In this document: piece after piece, positions 1-4,717 of the stretch
Position numbering within the stretch: the first letter of the stretch is position 1
Layout of the letters: the number at the start of each line of letters is the position of its first letter
Virus record (IMG/VR): IMGVR_UViG_2595698371_000001
Length of the DNA: 16,955 nt
From: Bongovirus bongo
Taxonomy: Duplodnaviria; Heunggongvirae; Uroviricota; Caudoviricetes; Vilmaviridae
Strand: one strand, 5' to 3'
Translations under genes and position numbers: made by a program
The notes under the pieces: generated by a model
The model's input: only the letters and a program-made list of their open reading frames with translations
Database searches by the model: none
What the model was told of the DNA's origin: nothing

Positions 1-33
1 ATCAGCCCCTCTCTCCCCGGCAAGTTTGAGTGC

Positions 34-64
34 CAAGTATCCAATTCCAATTTGCTGGTATGAT
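34..64 (+). promoter_or_regulatory. Putative rightward promoter, copy 1 of motif CAAGTA-N9-AATTTGCTGG-TANNNT (extended -10 TGG-TATGAT)
   Basis: CAAGTA at 34-39, AATTTGCTGG at 49-58 and TATGAT at 59-64. The same elements recur with identical spacing at 3990-4020. TGn-TANNNT is the mycobacterial SigA extended -10 pattern. Confidence 0.6.
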
Positions 65-170
65 GGAGGGGGGTTTGGGGGGAGGCCTTTTGAACCCCCA
101 ACTGCTGGTCGAAGCCTTGAGAAGCTTCCCATCTGCGGTTCGGCTCCTGGTTGAGGGGTTTGCTGTATGT

Positions 171-223
171 AAAAAACCCCAGGTCGAGTGCGACAAAACT
201 GCAGGTCGCACCTCCCTGGGGTT
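171..223 (-). terminator. Intrinsic terminator of the leftward accessory genes
   Basis: Compound hairpin: CCCCAGG (177-183) pairs with CCTGGGG (215-221) and GTGCGAC (188-194) with GTCGCAC (205-211). A6 at 171-176 gives a U6 tail on the minus strand. The hairpin begins 13 nt past the stop at 237. Confidence 0.85.
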
Positions 224-236
224 GGCCGGGACGAGG

Positions 237-530
237 TCAGGCTGGCGTGAGCGTCAGGTAGGTCGTCTTCACGTACTTGGTGTTTGGCGTGACGGTCATG
301 TAGCCGGTGGCCCCTTCGCCCTCGATGATCTCGTGGTGAATTGGCATGCCGCAGTTGGCGTCTGCGCATAGCGCGTAGGCCCCTTCCTCCCAGCCGACCA
401 CTTTGTACATGTAGTCGCCGGGGGCGATGTCGGTGCCGACGCGGTACATCGCGGACCTGGCCTCCGCTGCGGGGGCGAGTGCGATGGCGGCGCAGATTGC
501 TGCGATGAGCGCGGTGAGTGTGGTTCTCAT
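237..530 (-). CDS. Small secreted protein (Sec signal peptide, 97 aa)
   Basis: MRTTLTALIAAICAAIALAPAAEA| has a basic N-terminus, hydrophobic core and AxA cleavage site. The mature part starts with YRVGTDIAPGDY, resembling the VGxDIxPGxY motif of actinobacterial secreted proteins, and has a Cys pair (CADANC). Confidence 0.8.
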   Translation of the reverse strand: MRTTLTALIAAICAAIALAPAAEARSAMYRVGTDIAPGDYMYKVVGWEEGAYALCADANCGMPIHHEIIEGEGATGYMTVTPNTKYVKTTYLTLTPA

Positions 531-559
531 GAGCCTTCACAGTAGAGGAGAGGCCGTAC

Positions 560-808
560 ATGGCCGTTTGCAAGGTTGAGGGTTGCGGCCGTCGTGTGAC
601 GGCGCGTGGCTGGTGTAGTACGCACTATCGGTGGTGGCGTCAGGGTAAGCCGATGGATCGGCCGGTGCGGACGTATCAGCGATATGAAGAGGGGCCGGAT
701 GGCAGCTGTGTGATTGCCGCTATCCGACCCCGTCGAAGGCTCGGGCGGGAGCCGTTCGCTAAGGAGCTGTCTCTCCTCCAGGAGCTTGGTCTCCGGAAGG
801 GGGGATGA
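560..808 (+). CDS. Small Cys/His zinc-finger protein (CxxxGC...GxCxxHY), no nuclease domain
   Basis: Strong SD AGAGGAGAGG at 544-553. N-terminal CKVEGCGRRVTARGWCSTHY matches the Zn-binding module often found at the N-terminus of actinophage HNH proteins. Overlaps the convergent gene at 759 by 50 nt. Confidence 0.7.
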   Translation: MAVCKVEGCGRRVTARGWCSTHYRWWRQGKPMDRPVRTYQRYEEGPDGSCVIAAIRPRRRLGREPFAKELSLLQELGLRKGG

Positions 809-1190
809 TCCACTCCGAGCGGACTGCGTTCATCCGCTCGTAGAGATCGAGGACGGCGTCGAGGACTGGGTACGAGTCGCCTGCTTCGTCGGCGGGCCCA
901 GTGACGATGACGGTGCCGTGGAGTGAGTCTCGGCCTTCCATCTCGGGCTGGAGTTTCCACCAGAGGTAGGTTGCCATGGGGTTCGTTGGCAAACCGAGGA
1001 GCTTGCCTTCTTCGTTGCACCAGAGGGTGGCGTGCTCGGTGGTGACCGCCTCGATGTGACCACCGACGAGTTTGCGCATGGCGGGTAAGGCCTGGTCGAT
1101 CACGCGCACTTCGCGCGTGCCTTCTGGCGTGATGATTAACGCGCGTATTGACGGTGCTGTCACGGTTGCACTGTAGCCTGTCGTGGTCAT
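759..1190 (-). CDS. DUF3846-like protein (143 aa)
   Basis: Motifs ALIITPEG, LVGGHIEAV, LWCNEEGKLLGLPTNPMAT and LHGTVIVTG are characteristic of DUF3846. SD AAGGAGG. ATG overlaps the upstream TGA. Confidence 0.8.
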   Translation of the reverse strand: MTTTGYSATVTAPSIRALIITPEGTREVRVIDQALPAMRKLVGGHIEAVTTEHATLWCNEEGKLLGLPTNPMATYLWWKLQPEMEGRDSLHGTVIVTGPADEAGDSYPVLDAVLDLYERMNAVRSEWIIPPSGDQAPGGETAP

Positions 1191-1498
1191 GAAATCCTCC
1201 TTCGTCGTCGTGGGTTGCGCCCAGTCACTTCTATAAGCCTTAGTTCACTCCTCTCGGTTGGAGTTAAGGCCCCGCCACCTTTGAAAAGGTAGCCGTCAGC
1301 GTAGCTGTATCGACTGCCTTTTGTCTCCCCCGTGCGGGAGTGAATCCGCAGGAATCTCTCAGTTGAACACCTAATACAGATGAGGCCCTGGATGTAGGCC
1401 ACGCCCTCCTTCTTAACTGTGGTGTAGTCCCAGGCGTGACCGAAAACACGGCACATCCGGTGTTGCGGCTTAACAACTCGGTCTTCTGTGTCGCTCAT
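1187..1498 (-). CDS. Putative Zn-binding protein (C-x3-GH-x-W ... CxxC; DUF1660-like)
   Basis: CRVFGHAW and CIRC provide four potential metal ligands. Basic C-terminus RRRRR. ATGA overlaps at both ends. Confidence 0.7.
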   Translation of the reverse strand: MSDTEDRVVKPQHRMCRVFGHAWDYTTVKKEGVAYIQGLICIRCSTERFLRIHSRTGETKGSRYSYADGYLFKGGGALTPTERSELRLIEVTGRNPRRRRRIS

Positions 1499-1872
1499 TT
1501 ATGTGCGTTCTTCCAAGCTTCTATGACGGCCGGTTTGATGTACCCACGCTTGGAGACTGTGAAACCGTTTTTGCCCGCCCATTCGCGCACAGCGCGACGC
1601 TCTTCCTTTGTGAGGGCCGTGGTGGGATGGGCCGGTGGCTGCTCGCTTACAGCCGGTGTAACGCTCACCTCTTTCTGCGTCCTCTTTGGCCACTTCTTCT
1701 TCTCGTGAGCAACGCTTAGCCACTTATCGAGTGTGCGCTCTAGCTCATCTGCGTGTTCTTGCGTTAGGTCGATCTCATACAAGAAGCCTCGGTACCCGAT
1801 GACTTCGGTTACCGAGGCTTCTTTGGATGGATCAAGATCATCTGTAGTTAGAACAATGACTTGCCGTGCCAC
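1495..1872 (-). CDS. lsr2: Lsr2-like nucleoid-associated / xenogeneic silencer protein (125 aa)
   Basis: N-terminal oligomerisation domain (VIVLTTDDLD...YEIDL...L...W) and C-terminal DNA-binding domain (AVREWAGKNGFTVSKRGYI..VIEAW) align by eye with mycobacterial Lsr2. GTG start with purine-rich SD GGGAGAAAGGGAAAG. Confidence 0.93.
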   Translation of the reverse strand: MARQVIVLTTDDLDPSKEASVTEVIGYRGFLYEIDLTQEHADELERTLDKWLSVAHEKKKWPKRTQKEVSVTPAVSEQPPAHPTTALTKEERRAVREWAGKNGFTVSKRGYIKPAVIEAWKNAHK

Positions 1873-1882
1873 TTCTTTCCCT

Positions 1883-1928
1883 TTCTCCCTGCGAGGAGAA
1901 CACTATCGAAGTGGGGCTAATTTTCGAT
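1883..1928 (-). promoter_or_regulatory. Putative lsr2 promoter/leader: -10 TAGTGT, inverted repeat and SD-overlapping hairpin
   Basis: Minus-strand TAGTGT at 1905-1900. Inverted repeat ATCGAA-N12-TTCGAT at 1905-1928. Hairpin TTCTCC/GGAGAA at 1883-1900. Lies in the only sizeable gap (1873-1949) of the leftward block. Confidence 0.4.
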
Positions 1929-1949
1929 CACATCAGGTGGGCGAGTTGC

Positions 1950-2135
1950 CTAGTCGGCGTGGTCAATTATCGCCATGAACACGAAGGCGATGAGGGTGAT
2001 GACCGCCCACATGCCCGCTCCTACTGCCAGATTGATGGCTTCTGGTGAGACCGTGGAGGCGAGTATGGATCCGAGGAGGGCCGTAACCCAGTAGGTCGCG
2101 CTCAGCCAGCCTAGGACTTGGGTGAGGGCGCTCAC
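1950..2135 (-). CDS. Small membrane protein with two predicted TM helices (about 61 aa)
   Basis: Two hydrophobic stretches: VLGWLSATYWVTALLGSILA and LAVGAGMWAVITLIAFVFMAII. GTG at 2135 overlaps the upstream TGA (GTGA), so it is preferred over the track start at 2156. Confidence 0.75.
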   Translation of the reverse strand: MSALTQVLGWLSATYWVTALLGSILASTVSPEAINLAVGAGMWAVITLIAFVFMAIIDHAD

Positions 2136-2365
2136 TTGGCGTTGGCCCAGTCGCACGAGGGGCCGCCGTCGCGCCGGGACTGGCGAGTCTCGTACACGCA
2201 GAGCACCTTGCGCCCATCGGGCAGGTCGACGTAGTGCGCGTTGGAAGCGACTCCGAAGTCGGAGCTGTTGGCGGTCCCGCCTGCGGGCGTAGAGCCACAG
2301 GCCACTGTCATAGCCCCTACGGGGATGAGGAAGATCGCAGCCAGCATGGTCTTGAGTTTGGTCAT
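2132..2365 (-). CDS. Putative lipoprotein (77 aa)
   Basis: MTKLKTMLAAIFLIPVGAMTVA|C is a signal peptide with a relaxed lipobox TVAC. The C-terminal LPDGRKVLCV...GGPSCDW carries a Cys pair. SD AGAAAGGGA. Confidence 0.8.
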   Translation of the reverse strand: MTKLKTMLAAIFLIPVGAMTVACGSTPAGGTANSSDFGVASNAHYVDLPDGRKVLCVYETRQSRRDGGPSCDWANAK

Positions 2366-2574
2366 GTGTCCCTTTCTGGCTCTCGGTACCAGTCCCGGTA
2401 GGTCTCCAGGTCGGCCCTGAGCGCGTCCGTTACGTCGTCTATGTCGTTGAGCAGATCCGGCGTGGTCCGGTCCTCGTCCACGAGCTTGGTGACGTGCCCC
2501 CTGACGTAGCCGAGGGTGTTGATGGCCGTTCGGAAGGCTCGCTCAGTGCCTTGCCGGTCGAGCCCGTTACTCAT
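2362..2574 (-). CDS. Hypothetical protein (70 aa, helical/acidic)
   Basis: ATGA overlaps with both neighbours and phage-like codon usage. Confidence 0.75.
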   Translation of the reverse strand: MSNGLDRQGTERAFRTAINTLGYVRGHVTKLVDEDRTTPDLLNDIDDVTDALRADLETYRDWYREPERDT

Positions 2575-2837
2575 TGCTCGCCGTTGGCACTGGCGATCTC
2601 CTCCCAGTGGTCGGCGAACTCCTTGGCTTCCTTGAGGGTGTCGGCCATGTAGATGGTGGCCAGTGGGATGCCTGGCTTGGGCCTGACGAAGAGTCGCCAG
2701 CCGACTGGTGTGAACTCTTCGGTCTTGCGCTTTTGGCGAATGACGTAGAGCACATCGGGGTTACGCGTGGGGGAGGCGTGGTAGACGCTGAAACCTGGGT
2801 TGTCCTTAGAGACGTTGTGCCACTTCAGGTTTCCCAT
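2571..2837 (-). CDS. Hypothetical protein (about 88 aa, MGNLKWH...TLKEAKEFA)
   Basis: ATG at 2837 is preceded by SD AAGGAGAAAG. The longer track start (2933) lies inside the upstream gene. Confidence 0.75.
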   Translation of the reverse strand: MGNLKWHNVSKDNPGFSVYHASPTRNPDVLYVIRQKRKTEEFTPVGWRLFVRPKPGIPLATIYMADTLKEAKEFADHWEEIASANGEQ

Positions 2838-3133
2838 ACTTTCTCCTTGATCCAGGTCTTGATGTCGTCGTCGTGGGCCTGCTTGTTCCACATGTCGTGG
2901 GCGAGGCAGCGGACGGCCGACGCGAATGCCCACTCGTCGGCCATGTCTCGTGCGCTGAAGTAGCGCGAGTCGAGGGGGTAGCTGCCGCGACGCATCACAA
3001 CCATCACGTCGTACTCGCTGCCGGTGTCATGGACTCGCGTAACCTCGAACGAGTAGTTCTCGGGCACTTCGGGCATCCGGTCGTACGGCGACTTGACAAA
3101 CCACGAGCCGGTCTTGCTGGTTGGTTTGCTCAT
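2825..3133 (-). CDS. Hypothetical protein (about 102 aa)
   Basis: ATG at 3133 overlaps the upstream TGA (ATGA). The 3' end overlaps the next gene by 13 nt and contains its SD. Confidence 0.75.
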   Translation of the reverse strand: MSKPTSKTGSWFVKSPYDRMPEVPENYSFEVTRVHDTGSEYDVMVVMRRGSYPLDSRYFSARDMADEWAFASAVRCLAHDMWNKQAHDDDIKTWIKEKVWET

Positions 3134-3417
3134 GCCCACTCCACCGAGACTTCAGGCAGGAGATCGGGCCACATACCGTCTCCCAGGGGCCCTTCGTCGG
3201 GGATGGTGACGGTGAGGATCCGGATATCCCGAACAGGACGGTCTGGTTCGCGTTTCTGCCGGAAGTGGTCACTTCGGTGGCATTCGTCGCGGTAGTTCTC
3301 GGCCGCACCCTTGCGGGTGTAGGCCCGCGTCTTCTCGTGCGTCCACAGGTGGGCCCCAATTGCGGTGCGGGGCTTGCCGTCCCGGTACTCGACTAGGATG
3401 CTGACCTGCTGGCTCAT
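3130..3417 (-). CDS. Hypothetical protein (about 95 aa), paralogue of 3414-3644
   Basis: ATG at 3417 overlaps the upstream TGA. Shares RxYxxxGxAxN[FY]R and D[IV]RILxxTI motifs with its neighbour. Confidence 0.75.
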   Translation of the reverse strand: MSQQVSILVEYRDGKPRTAIGAHLWTHEKTRAYTRKGAAENYRDECHRSDHFRQKREPDRPVRDIRILTVTIPDEGPLGDGMWPDLLPEVSVEWA

Positions 3418-3644
3418 CCGACCCATTCCGTCTCGACGGTGCCGTCGGCGTGGATGGTGGTCCGCAGGATGCGGACATCGTGGGGCATGTTCAAGCGCTT
3501 CAGCTCGTTGGCGAAGCGGGTGCGGAAGTTGCGGGCCATGCCGAGGACGCCGTAGGACCGCACGTCTCGCTGCCGGTAGCTGCTGCCGAGTGCGAGGCTG
3601 GGCTCTGGGGTGAAGTTGACCAGGGTGTGCATCTTGACGGCCAT
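3414..3644 (-). CDS. Hypothetical protein (about 76 aa), paralogue of 3130-3417
   Basis: ATG at 3644 in a TGATG overlap, with SD GAAGGAAGG upstream. Shares motifs with its neighbour. Confidence 0.75.
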   Translation of the reverse strand: MAVKMHTLVNFTPEPSLALGSSYRQRDVRSYGVLGMARNFRTRFANELKRLNMPHDVRILRTTIHADGTVETEWVG

Positions 3645-3943
3645 CAGGCACCTTCCTTCACTTCGCCGCGCGACTTCAGTTGTTGCGCGATGGGATTCAG
3701 GACGAGATCCTTGTAGTCCTTCTTGGCCATCAGGTACCGGATCGCCTTCTTGCCGGTGGGGAACCACTGGATCTCGTCGGACTCGATGTCCGTCCTTGGC
3801 GGCAACACGAACCAGGACATACCCTCTGGCGGCTTCACGCCTTCGGTCTGCTTGCCTGGCTCCCACTTGGCGCACAGCCAGTGATCCCACGCGGCCCTGA
3901 ACCTTCCAGGGGTGCCCGGTGGGGCGGTGTTGGTTGCGGTCAT
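3644..3943 (-). CDS. Hypothetical protein (99 aa), first gene of the leftward operon
   Basis: ORF heads the coupled chain. No SD; possibly leaderless. Confidence 0.75.
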   Translation of the reverse strand: MTATNTAPPGTPGRFRAAWDHWLCAKWEPGKQTEGVKPPEGMSWFVLPPRTDIESDEIQWFPTGKKAIRYLMAKKDYKDLVLNPIAQQLKSRGEVKEGA

Positions 3944-3950
3944 GGCGGCA

Positions 3951-3956
3951 ACTTTA
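3951..3956 (-). promoter_or_regulatory. Putative -10 (TAAAGT) of a leaderless leftward promoter
   Basis: TANNNT hexamer 7 nt upstream of the ATG at 3943, with no SD in between. No convincing -35. Confidence 0.5.
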
Positions 3957-3989
3957 TGACGGCCGTAGGGGTGATTACAGGACGTTTAT

Positions 3990-4020
3990 CAAGTACGTCT
4001 AATGAATTTGCTGGTAAACT
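3990..4020 (+). promoter_or_regulatory. Putative promoter of the virion operon, copy 2 of motif CAAGTA-N9-AATTTGCTGG-TANNNT (TGG-TAAACT)
   Basis: CAAGTA at 3990-3995, AATTTGCTGG at 4005-4014 and TAAACT at 4015-4020, followed by SD AGGAGGT (4027-4033) and TTG at 4041. Confidence 0.7.
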
Positions 4021-4040
4021 AGGGGCAGGAGGTACCTCTC

Positions 4041-4364
4041 TTGATCACGCCATCGATCAACTGGGCACGCCTTGAGAATTGCCCCCCAATCTGGGAGACG
4101 CTCTCACTTGAGGACGTTCAGAAGATGTTGCAGGTGGACGTTCAAGAGCTAGCCCATCTGTATCAGATACAGGCCGAGGACGCGGCCGAAGCTCAGGCAG
4201 CCGGTCGGCAGCCGAACTATCGGATTCGCATCCTCATTCGAGCCTGGGAGCGCACACAGGACGCGCATTGGTCCTGGTACAAGGAGATCAGCAACCATGT
4301 CCGCAATTCAGCCACCCGAGGGCCTTCGCGCCTGGGGGCAGCAGCTGTGGGACAAGGTAACTGA
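4041..4364 (+). CDS. Hypothetical protein (107 aa), first gene of the rightward operon
   Basis: Consensus SD AGGAGGT 7 nt before TTG. Overlaps terS by 68 nt. Confidence 0.7.
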   Translation: MITPSINWARLENCPPIWETLSLEDVQKMLQVDVQELAHLYQIQAEDAAEAQAAGRQPNYRIRILIRAWERTQDAHWSWYKEISNHVRNSATRGPSRLGAAAVGQGN

Positions 4365-4692
4365 GACCACCTCGTTTGACCCGGCTGGGTATTACATCCT
4401 GGCCGAAGCCTGCCGCACGGCAGACATCATTGAGCGTCTCAGCGGCGCTCTGCGGGCTGGAAGCTCCCAGTGGGTGAGCCTGTCAGACGAAATCGTTGAG
4501 GCAGTTCAGATTTCAGGCGTTGACGTTGCCGAGATCAATCTCGTCGTCAACCCGATCCTGGGTGAGATCCGCCAGCAGCGGCTCACCCTTCGCCAGCTTC
4601 TGGCACAACTCAAACTCGGTAAGACCGAGGCAGAAACGGTAGAGGACGACCCCATCGCGAAGTTGATGGCCGAGTTCTCCACTCCGGATTGA
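4297..4692 (+). CDS. terS: Terminase small subunit
   Basis: Actinophage TerS pattern: PPEGL..WG..LW..VT, LAEACRTAD, NPILGEIRQQR.TLRQLL.QLKL. SD AAGGAG. Immediately upstream of TerL. Confidence 0.85.
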   Translation: MSAIQPPEGLRAWGQQLWDKVTETTSFDPAGYYILAEACRTADIIERLSGALRAGSSQWVSLSDEIVEAVQISGVDVAEINLVVNPILGEIRQQRLTLRQLLAQLKLGKTEAETVEDDPIAKLMAEFSTPD

Positions 4693-4717
4693 TTTTTCAG
4701 TTAGGACGGTTGGGCCC

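Follow-up and report, generated by a model that had tools for sequence, protein, structure and literature searches.

Why would a phage carry the same short non-coding sequence just inside its left end and again ahead of its terminase and virion genes? The question is raised by a stretch of 16,955 nucleotides (nt) of Bongovirus bongo (IMG/VR record IMGVR_UViG_2595698371_000001), called the window below in its whole length. In it the motif CAAGTA-N9-AATTTGCTGGTA occurs exactly at 34-60 (site 1) and at 3990-4016 (site 2), both times on the + strand and in non-coding DNA, as a match of 27 nt. The answer favoured here is that both sites are probably rightward extended −10 promoters (TGn-TANNNT) without a −35 element, which would be read by the SigA RNA polymerase of the host. 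The parts of the two sites that are needed for the argument are the following:

49 to 64, + strand: core of site 1, AATTTGCTGGTATGAT, with TTTGC at 51-55, TG at 56-57 and the hexamer TATGAT at 59-64
4005 to 4020, + strand: core of site 2, AATTTGCTGGTAAACT, with TTTGC at 4007-4011, TG at 4012-4013 and the hexamer TAAACT at 4015-4020
34 to 39, + strand: CAAGTA of site 1, exact in the window
3990 to 3995, + strand: CAAGTA of site 2, at about −37 to −32

The two hexamers stand in register after the repeat, TGG precedes each of them, and G-rich runs lie 3' of both sites (GGAGGGGGG at site 1, AGGGGCAGGAGG at site 2). An exact repeat at 34-64 and 3990-4020 had been claimed by the original prediction, and this is borne out: the window holds no third copy of CAAGTA-N9-AATTTGCTGGTA with up to three mismatches, and no match was found in 200 dinucleotide shuffles. 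The 27-nt repeat is real and beyond chance.

The phage and its relatives

Positions 1-4400 of the window match SirSheldon (MW713383.1; 81,714 bp, genus Bongovirus, cluster M) from its base 1 with 99.9% identity, and the whole window differs from SirSheldon at 20 positions. By this match the window belongs to a cluster M1 mycobacteriophage, whose genome it covers from the left end. The 12-mer of the motif has no exact copy beyond sites 1 and 2 in the 81.7-kb SirSheldon genome. SlimJimmy and Bricole are close relatives. Identity is about 84% for Reindeer and about 75% for the Reyvirus (M2) phages Rey, MrMagoo, Estes, Aziz, GenevaB15, GardenSalsa and Nanosmite, and the matches of the MabI prophages of Mycobacterium abscessus are confined to genes. 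The motif was compared among Reindeer, five M2 phages and the MabI prophages. A block of leftward genes (237-3943) separates the left cohesive end from the rightward terminase and virion genes, a layout that has been reported for cluster M (PMC7953290).

A conserved extended −10 signature

In the genomes compared, A-N-TT(T/C)GCTG-R-TANNNT is found exactly twice per genome and always on the + strand. The looser pattern TTYGCTG-N1-3-TANNNT gives two forward matches each in SirSheldon, Rey, Nanosmite, prophiT49-2 and prophiGD54-2, and Reindeer likewise has two; reversed-pattern controls for TTYGCTG-N1-3-TANNNT give 0-1 matches. Orthologous sites never differ at T1, A2 or T6 of the hexamer. The TG does not change either: in every genome compared, both sites have it one base ahead of the hexamer. 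NNN, by contrast, takes six forms. At site 1 these are TTTGCTG-(G/A)-TATGAT, TTCGCTGATATACT and TTCGCTGATAAACT, and in the M2 phages TTTGCTG-TG-(G/A)-TACCAT, giving the hexamers TATGAT, TACCAT, TATACT and TAAACT among the relatives. At site 2, TTTGCTG-(G/A)- is followed by TAAACT, TAAAAT or TACACT, and TTTGCTG-R-TANNNT is kept in all M phages as well as in nine MabI-like contigs. The 2-nt TG insertion at site 1 of the M2 phages restores TGn-TANNNT.

A hexamer fixed at T, A and T and free at NNN, with TG before it, is what a SigA extended −10 promoter is expected to show. In Mycobacterium smegmatis, SigA prefers TANNNT as its −10 with no bias in NNN and no −35 consensus, the −10 alone has been reported to be sufficient, and transcripts preferentially start with A or G at +1 and C at −1 (PMC6448022). 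The original prediction had expected the motif to be conserved in related phages, which holds for its 3' half, and had placed rightward promoters here with starts near 71 and 4027, for which the signature gives support. At both sites every genome compared also keeps TT(T/C)GC upstream of the TG and, three bases before TT(T/C)GC, an A; this conservation exceeds what the spacer of an ordinary promoter needs.

The base between TG and hexamer (58 and 4014) is the same at both sites in six of eight genome types: G/G in SirSheldon, Rey and MrMagoo and A/A in Reindeer, Nanosmite and MabI, with A/G in Estes and Aziz. The matched pairs could reflect concerted change or chance. Elsewhere in the SirSheldon genome, intergenic TGnTANNNT is found only at 48265-48273 (TGATACAAT) and 55144-55152 (TGCTACACT), both on the + strand and facing rightward genes, and TGCTACACT adjoins an inverted TTTGCTG. 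Both patterns are rarer in this genome than Markov models predict (TANNNT 235 observed vs about 600; TGnTANNNT 8 observed vs about 42-49 in simulations), probably in large part through GC-rich third codon positions. The TGnTANNNT depletion was not used as evidence, being confounded by this codon-position GC bias. A wider scan of genome contigs with the site 2 pattern returned chance matches in unrelated AT-rich genomes only, and its non-mycobacterial viral matches were coding sequence of another virus group.

The upstream half belongs to one lineage

The CAAGTA half is not shared by the relatives. Only the SirSheldon-like lineage has it at site 1, where Reindeer reads AATGAC and the sequences of M2, Nanosmite and MabI are unrelated; it lies there within a fast-evolving stretch (21-43) with almost no conservation. 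At site 2, AGT (3992-3994) and TCTAA (3998-4002) are invariant in seven M phages, and MabI has a related AAGG one base further upstream. When the upstream parts of sites 1 and 2 of one genome are compared alone, their similarity is at chance level in five of five phages tested. Because CAAGTA is absent at site 1 of the relatives and the upstream similarity is at chance, the bipartite identity is, on this comparison, a peculiarity of the SirSheldon lineage.

Three parts of the original prediction are not supported. The motif is not bipartite with fixed spacing beyond this lineage, as site 1 of Reindeer, M2 and MabI illustrates; with two members per genome it hardly makes a promoter class; and an activator is not implied by a −35 that differs from TTGACA, because the SigA promoters of M. 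smegmatis lack a −35 consensus and their −10 suffices (PMC6448022).

A 10-nt identical block, GCCTTGAGAA, also occurs at 114-123 and 4069-4078, 63 and 62 nt after the TTTGCTG copies. This pair is found in the SirSheldon lineage only and may reflect patchy exchange between the two loci. A segmental duplication of site 2 was considered and rejected, as the flanks of sites 1 and 2 are no more alike than chance allows in Reindeer, Rey, MrMagoo and Nanosmite; they are weakly similar (P ~0.01) in the SirSheldon lineage only.

Site 2 and the virion operon

The 97-bp gap at 3944-4040 is predicted to hold two back-to-back promoters, site 2 facing right and the promoter of gene 11 facing left. Around it lie the following features:

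4026 to 4032, + strand: C (−1) and A (+1), then GGAGG; CAGGAGGTA is invariant in cluster M and present in MabI
4041 to 4364, + strand: first gene of the rightward operon, 107 amino acids, TTG start, matching phrog_14015 over its full length (E 7e-61)
4297 to 4692, + strand: terminase small subunit gene (terS), phrog_1496 (E 2e-39), so annotated in SlimJimmy and Reindeer
3951 to 3980, − strand: predicted leftward promoter of gene 11, with the box CTGTAATC at 3980-3973, 16 nt, and TAAAGT at 3956-3951

In cluster M an invariant C-A followed by GGAGGTA stands 7 bases after TAAACT. The predicted start is A4027, and the Shine-Dalgarno sequence would then lie at the 5' end of a 14-nt leader. Site 2 thus combines an invariant C−1/A+1 with a gene 14 nt downstream of the predicted start. 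This gene is unannotated in SirSheldon, SlimJimmy and Reindeer and annotated in M2 and MabI. Its orthologues are 48-81% identical across M and MabI, the distance between the first T of TTTGCTG and its start is 34 nt in six of six genomes examined, and it overlaps terS by 68 nt. On this evidence it is a real gene that heads the operon of terS and the virion genes. Its product has no Pfam or PDB sequence match, and the Atlas model of it resembles a helical hairpin; the idea that it binds DNA was dropped, as nothing in the Pfam and PDB searches or in the model supports it. TerS itself has no Pfam match. After terS follow terL and the portal, capsid, tail and lysis genes up to 33 kb. Late transcription of mycobacteriophages starts upstream of the virion genes, and few late promoters have been characterised (PMC9262239).

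The leftward promoter had been said to lack the motif. This is correct: it uses the CTGTAATC box at −35, and TAAAGT is followed by 7 nt and the ATG at 3943, which makes it a leaderless type. CTGTAATC is the complement of the cluster M box GATTACAG (3973-3980) and is conserved in all M phages. The counts and −35 placement of the GATTACAG and TGACCTGC boxes were confirmed in the SirSheldon genome. The same arrangement of box, 16 nt and ANNNT-type hexamer occurs at four other GATTACAG copies of SirSheldon (~36.7, 48.4, 50.3 and 55.5 kb). The hexamer is TANNNT in four of the five sites and GAAGCT at ~36.7 kb. At the four GATTACAG copies that precede genes, 6-10 nt lie between hexamer and ATG, three of them being leaderless-type (6-7 nt); the copy at ~55.5 kb precedes a tRNA array and not an ATG. 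In the composite TGACCTGCGATTACAG form, TGACCT stands at −35 with an 18-nt spacer. A scan of 1-4700 for promoters of the −35/−10 type found none.

The leftward block itself adds little on regulation: genes 1-11 were screened for regulators and gave families of unknown function only. One open reading frame (ORF) in it, 1187-1498 on the − strand (103 amino acids), is matched by phrog_4480 over its whole length (E 4.5e-38). MrMagoo, Estes and Aziz carry an annotation for it; the SirSheldon record does not, and has a 385-bp gap there.

Site 1 at the left cohesive end

Counted from the cohesive end, the first base of TT(T/C)GCTG is nt 51 in seven of seven cluster M phages and in two MabI prophages. 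In prophiT49-2, where the joined ends lie at 1200/1201, the word is again found 51 nt on, with TAAACT at 59-64, and site 1 of prophiGD54-2 has the same arrangement. Because word and position are the same in the MabI prophages, site 1 is, by this measure, as old as site 2. The joined ends of prophiT49-2 (1190-1264) were recognised by their likeness to the cluster M termini (...cacctcttgcaa | atcagcatccctctcccc) and lie about 1.2 kb from the left attachment site. Downstream of site 1 the following features were noted:

70 to 72, + strand: a G about 7 nt beyond the hexamer, the predicted start of site 1 by the usual mycobacterial −10 spacing (PMC6448022)
105 to 111, + strand: CTGGTCG block, with C105, G107, G108, T109, C110 and G111 invariant in eight genomes
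171 to 221, − strand: hairpin and T-run identified by inspection of the sequence, the putative terminator of leftward gene 1, which faces site 1

Site 1 has a G at the expected start place, and a co-oriented gene follows it in MabI only, where a rightward gene of about 60 codons is annotated about 115 nt downstream. No family match was found for this gene. Among cluster M phages the ORFs after site 1 vary in start, frame and length. A small protein was considered here and rejected: its frame is partly kept (..VEGFAVCKKP), with no PHROG or Pfam match. In cluster M the stretch after site 1 is probably non-coding. Rfam returned one sub-threshold chance match only on 1-4400. A transcript from site 1 might act as a short regulatory RNA, might interfere with leftward transcription that reads through the joined ends, or might have a function tied to the ends as such.

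The putative terminator of gene 1 has stems at 177-183/215-221 and 188-194/205-211, with an A-run at 171-176 on the + strand; a simple scan did not report this hairpin. The G-run GGAGGGGGGTTTGGGGGG (65-82) is invariant in M1 and M2 and absent in Nanosmite and MabI. It can pair with AAAAAACCCC of the terminator (171-180), a pairing that never varies and is without covariation support. CTGGTCG at 105-111 resembles, in our reading, the reverse complement of a TGACCTG box.

The TTTGCTG word

The word that the two sites share upstream of the hexamer is common outside them. TTTGCTG is among the most over-represented non-coding 7-mers of the SirSheldon genome, where 13 of its 15 copies are non-coding (non-coding DNA being 12.7% of the total), a count level with that of GATTACA. 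For 105 permutations of the same composition the mean is 1.7 non-coding copies vs 13 for TTTGCTG. Seven copies lie in non-coding DNA across the joined ends, on the + strand to the right of the cohesive-end site (cos) and on the − strand to its left. The word is enriched in the 1.66 kb spanning cos in SirSheldon, Reindeer, Rey and MrMagoo (P<=0.001 vs dinucleotide shuffles). Copies far from cos are found at 37051, 55133, 55187, 58260, 66483 and 79028 of the SirSheldon genome. With respect to transcription, 10 of the 13 non-coding copies are co-directional and 3 opposed, by a hand count from the annotation. A third copy lies downstream of site 1:

159 to 165, + strand: third TTTGCTG copy, with no TANNNT hexamer after it

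This copy lies in a block, GGTTGAGGGGTTTGCTGTATG, that is conserved in M1 and M2 phages and of which only GTTTGC survives in Nanosmite. A palindromic operator TTTGC-NN-GCAAA was considered for the site pair and rejected, given mismatches at site 1 and in MabI and an overall count near chance. An exact copy is found in the right end of SirSheldon and Rey, and site 2 fits it but for 1-2 mismatches. SirSheldon has a perfect 14-bp palindrome, ATTTGC-TA-GCAAAT, at 80857-80870 in its non-coding right end; Rey has GTTTGC-TG-GCAAAC at 83095-83108, and the palindrome is degenerate in Reindeer and Nanosmite.

Whether TTTGCTG is the word read by a candidate DNA-binding protein that couples both promoters is close to an even call. 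The more specific idea, that such a protein of cluster M and MabI would sit on both −10s and on the cos-flanking arrays and so tie the switch-on of the virion genes to the state of the genome ends, is a tentative one that we regard as doubtful.

Weighing the explanations

If both sites are SigA extended −10 promoters, site 2 would drive the operon for virion assembly and lysis. Transcription would begin at A4027 with a 14-nt leader opening with AGGAGG, translation would begin at the TTG at 4041, and terS, terL and the structural genes would come after the 4041-4364 gene. Site 1 would be a twin promoter 50 bp inside the left cohesive end. In MabI it would precede the small rightward gene, and in cluster M its transcript would meet the terminator hairpin of the convergent gene 1. 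A protein at TTTGCTG would occupy −20 to −14. Because this overlaps the contact of RNA polymerase, occlusion, and with it repression, is more likely than activation. The sequence, conservation, copy number and positions of the sites are direct observations. Promoter activity, start sites, timing and the binding protein are inferred from them.

Several points weigh against this explanation. The compared phages are related, and part of the conservation is inheritance. In cluster M about 100 nt without a convincing gene follow site 1, which the convergent leftward gene 1 faces, and no covariation-supported fold was found for a structured RNA downstream of site 1, the covariation term being unfavourable. 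The TTTGCTG copies other than those of sites 1 and 2 are without the hexamer and without a wider shared consensus, and some of them lie within larger repeats, which means that the copy counts are not independent. At site 1 of the M2 phages the TG insertion puts TTTGC 2 bp further from the hexamer, and in Nanosmite and MabI this site reads TTCGCTG in place of TTTGCTG; because of these two changes the word is neither in strict register nor invariant. Finally, a plain SigA promoter before lysis genes would need silencing in lysogens.

An alternative that makes the word primary and the hexamers secondary, and that the original prediction had also named, is packaging: the TTTGCTG copies at +51 and +159 would be a cosB-like array for TerS or a partner, and the site 2 copy would serve autoregulation of terS. 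What speaks for it is that site 1 keeps a distance of precisely 50 bp to the end in all M and MabI genomes, next to the variable 21-43. So does the second copy at 159-160, which six M1/M2 phages (not Nanosmite) keep despite intervening indels. The M2 insertion keeps the distance from word to cos and not the distance from word to hexamer, the word is enriched around cos, and site 2 is directly upstream of the terS operon. However, the conservation of T-A-NNN-T and TG at both sites is predicted by a promoter and not by a terminase site, the copies at the right end are 100 to 1200 bp away from cos and differently placed in M1 and M2, six other copies lie far from cos, and MabI has neither the +159 copy nor the mirrored orientation. 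Packaging is an unlikely explanation of the pair. It is quite unlikely that site 2 alone is functional and that site 1 of cluster M is the decaying relic of a promoter of a left-end gene that MabI still has, its likeness to site 2 being inheritance and chance. Such a relic would fit the lack of a credible gene after site 1 in cluster M, where ORFs differ in frame and length, the lack of an RNA family or covarying structure, and the restriction of the extra identity patches (CAAGTA, GCCTTGAGAA) to the SirSheldon lineage. Against this, TGn-TANNNT and its position are kept in nine genomes beside a freely diverged 21-43, and this persistence at site 1 while its flank diverged argues for continued selection.

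The remaining alternative, that of the original prediction, is that a phage late activator docks on CAAGTA at −35, defining a class CAAGTA-N9-AATTTGCTGG-TANNNT. Late operons are usually under timing control, the CAAGTA hexamer is exact at identical spacing in the window, and the invariant AGT and TCTAA of site 2 leave room for an upstream element there in cluster M. This must be set against the loss of CAAGTA from site 1 in Reindeer, M2, Nanosmite and MabI, the chance-level upstream similarity in all five phages, the mere two sites per genome, and a missing TTGACA that is normal for SigA promoters of M. smegmatis (PMC6448022). An activator of this kind is highly improbable.

Comparison with known systems

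With the mycobacterial SigA extended −10 (PMC6448022) the sites share TANNNT with a free NNN, the TG two bases upstream and the lack of a −35 consensus, together with a purine at +1, C at −1 and a co-oriented gene downstream (site 2). Unlike ordinary SigA promoters, they carry an invariant TT(T/C)GC and the A three bases before it upstream of the TG, and they occur in exactly two copies per phage genome, one of them at a fixed distance from the cohesive end. Within the same phage group, the CR1-CR4 repeats of cluster M (Pope et al. 2014; cited in PMC7953290) are likewise short conserved intergenic words that are thought to regulate transcription or translation (PMC7953290). A literature word search on CR1-CR4 turned up the Estes/Aziz announcement only. 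On present evidence the TTTGCTG-TANNNT pair appears to be new, though an earlier description in Pope et al. 2014 is possible.

Other phages offer partial parallels. The middle and late promoters of the Thermus phage P23-45 have an extended −10 and no −35; the host holoenzyme turns to them once phage proteins have disabled recognition of the −35. The likeness lies in late genes on an extended −10 without −35, while other promoters of the same phage need an upstream box. No homologue of the RNA polymerase-binding proteins of P23-45 came up here, though no search was aimed at them. In lambda, the R sites of cosB are bound by gpNu1. These are also repeated short sites within about 200 bp of a cohesive end; unlike in lambda, terS is here 4 kb away behind leftward genes, and the proximal site doubles as a promoter-like element. 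The operator/stoperator sites of L5 gp71 (PMC9934374, PMC9262239) resemble TTTGCTG: both are short asymmetric words spread over intergenic DNA, crowded near a cohesive end and with one copy overlapping a promoter. The gp71 sites are 13-14 nt long vs the 7 nt of TTTGCTG, which has 13 non-coding copies in mixed orientation and no repressor linked to it.

Significance

Few mycobacteriophage late promoters are defined, and they are wanted as strong expression tools (PMC9262239). For cluster M phages and the M. abscessus prophages related to them, the analysis offers a precise candidate promoter of the virion operon, whose conserved twin always lies 50 bp from the cohesive end. TTTGCTG becomes a third abundant intergenic word of these genomes, beside the GATTACAG and TGACCTGC boxes. 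Should the two sites prove to be ordinary SigA promoters only, this would be useful annotation and no more. If a TTTGCTG-binding protein does act at both, the state of the genome ends to which the virion genes would be tied may be circularisation, replication or packaging.

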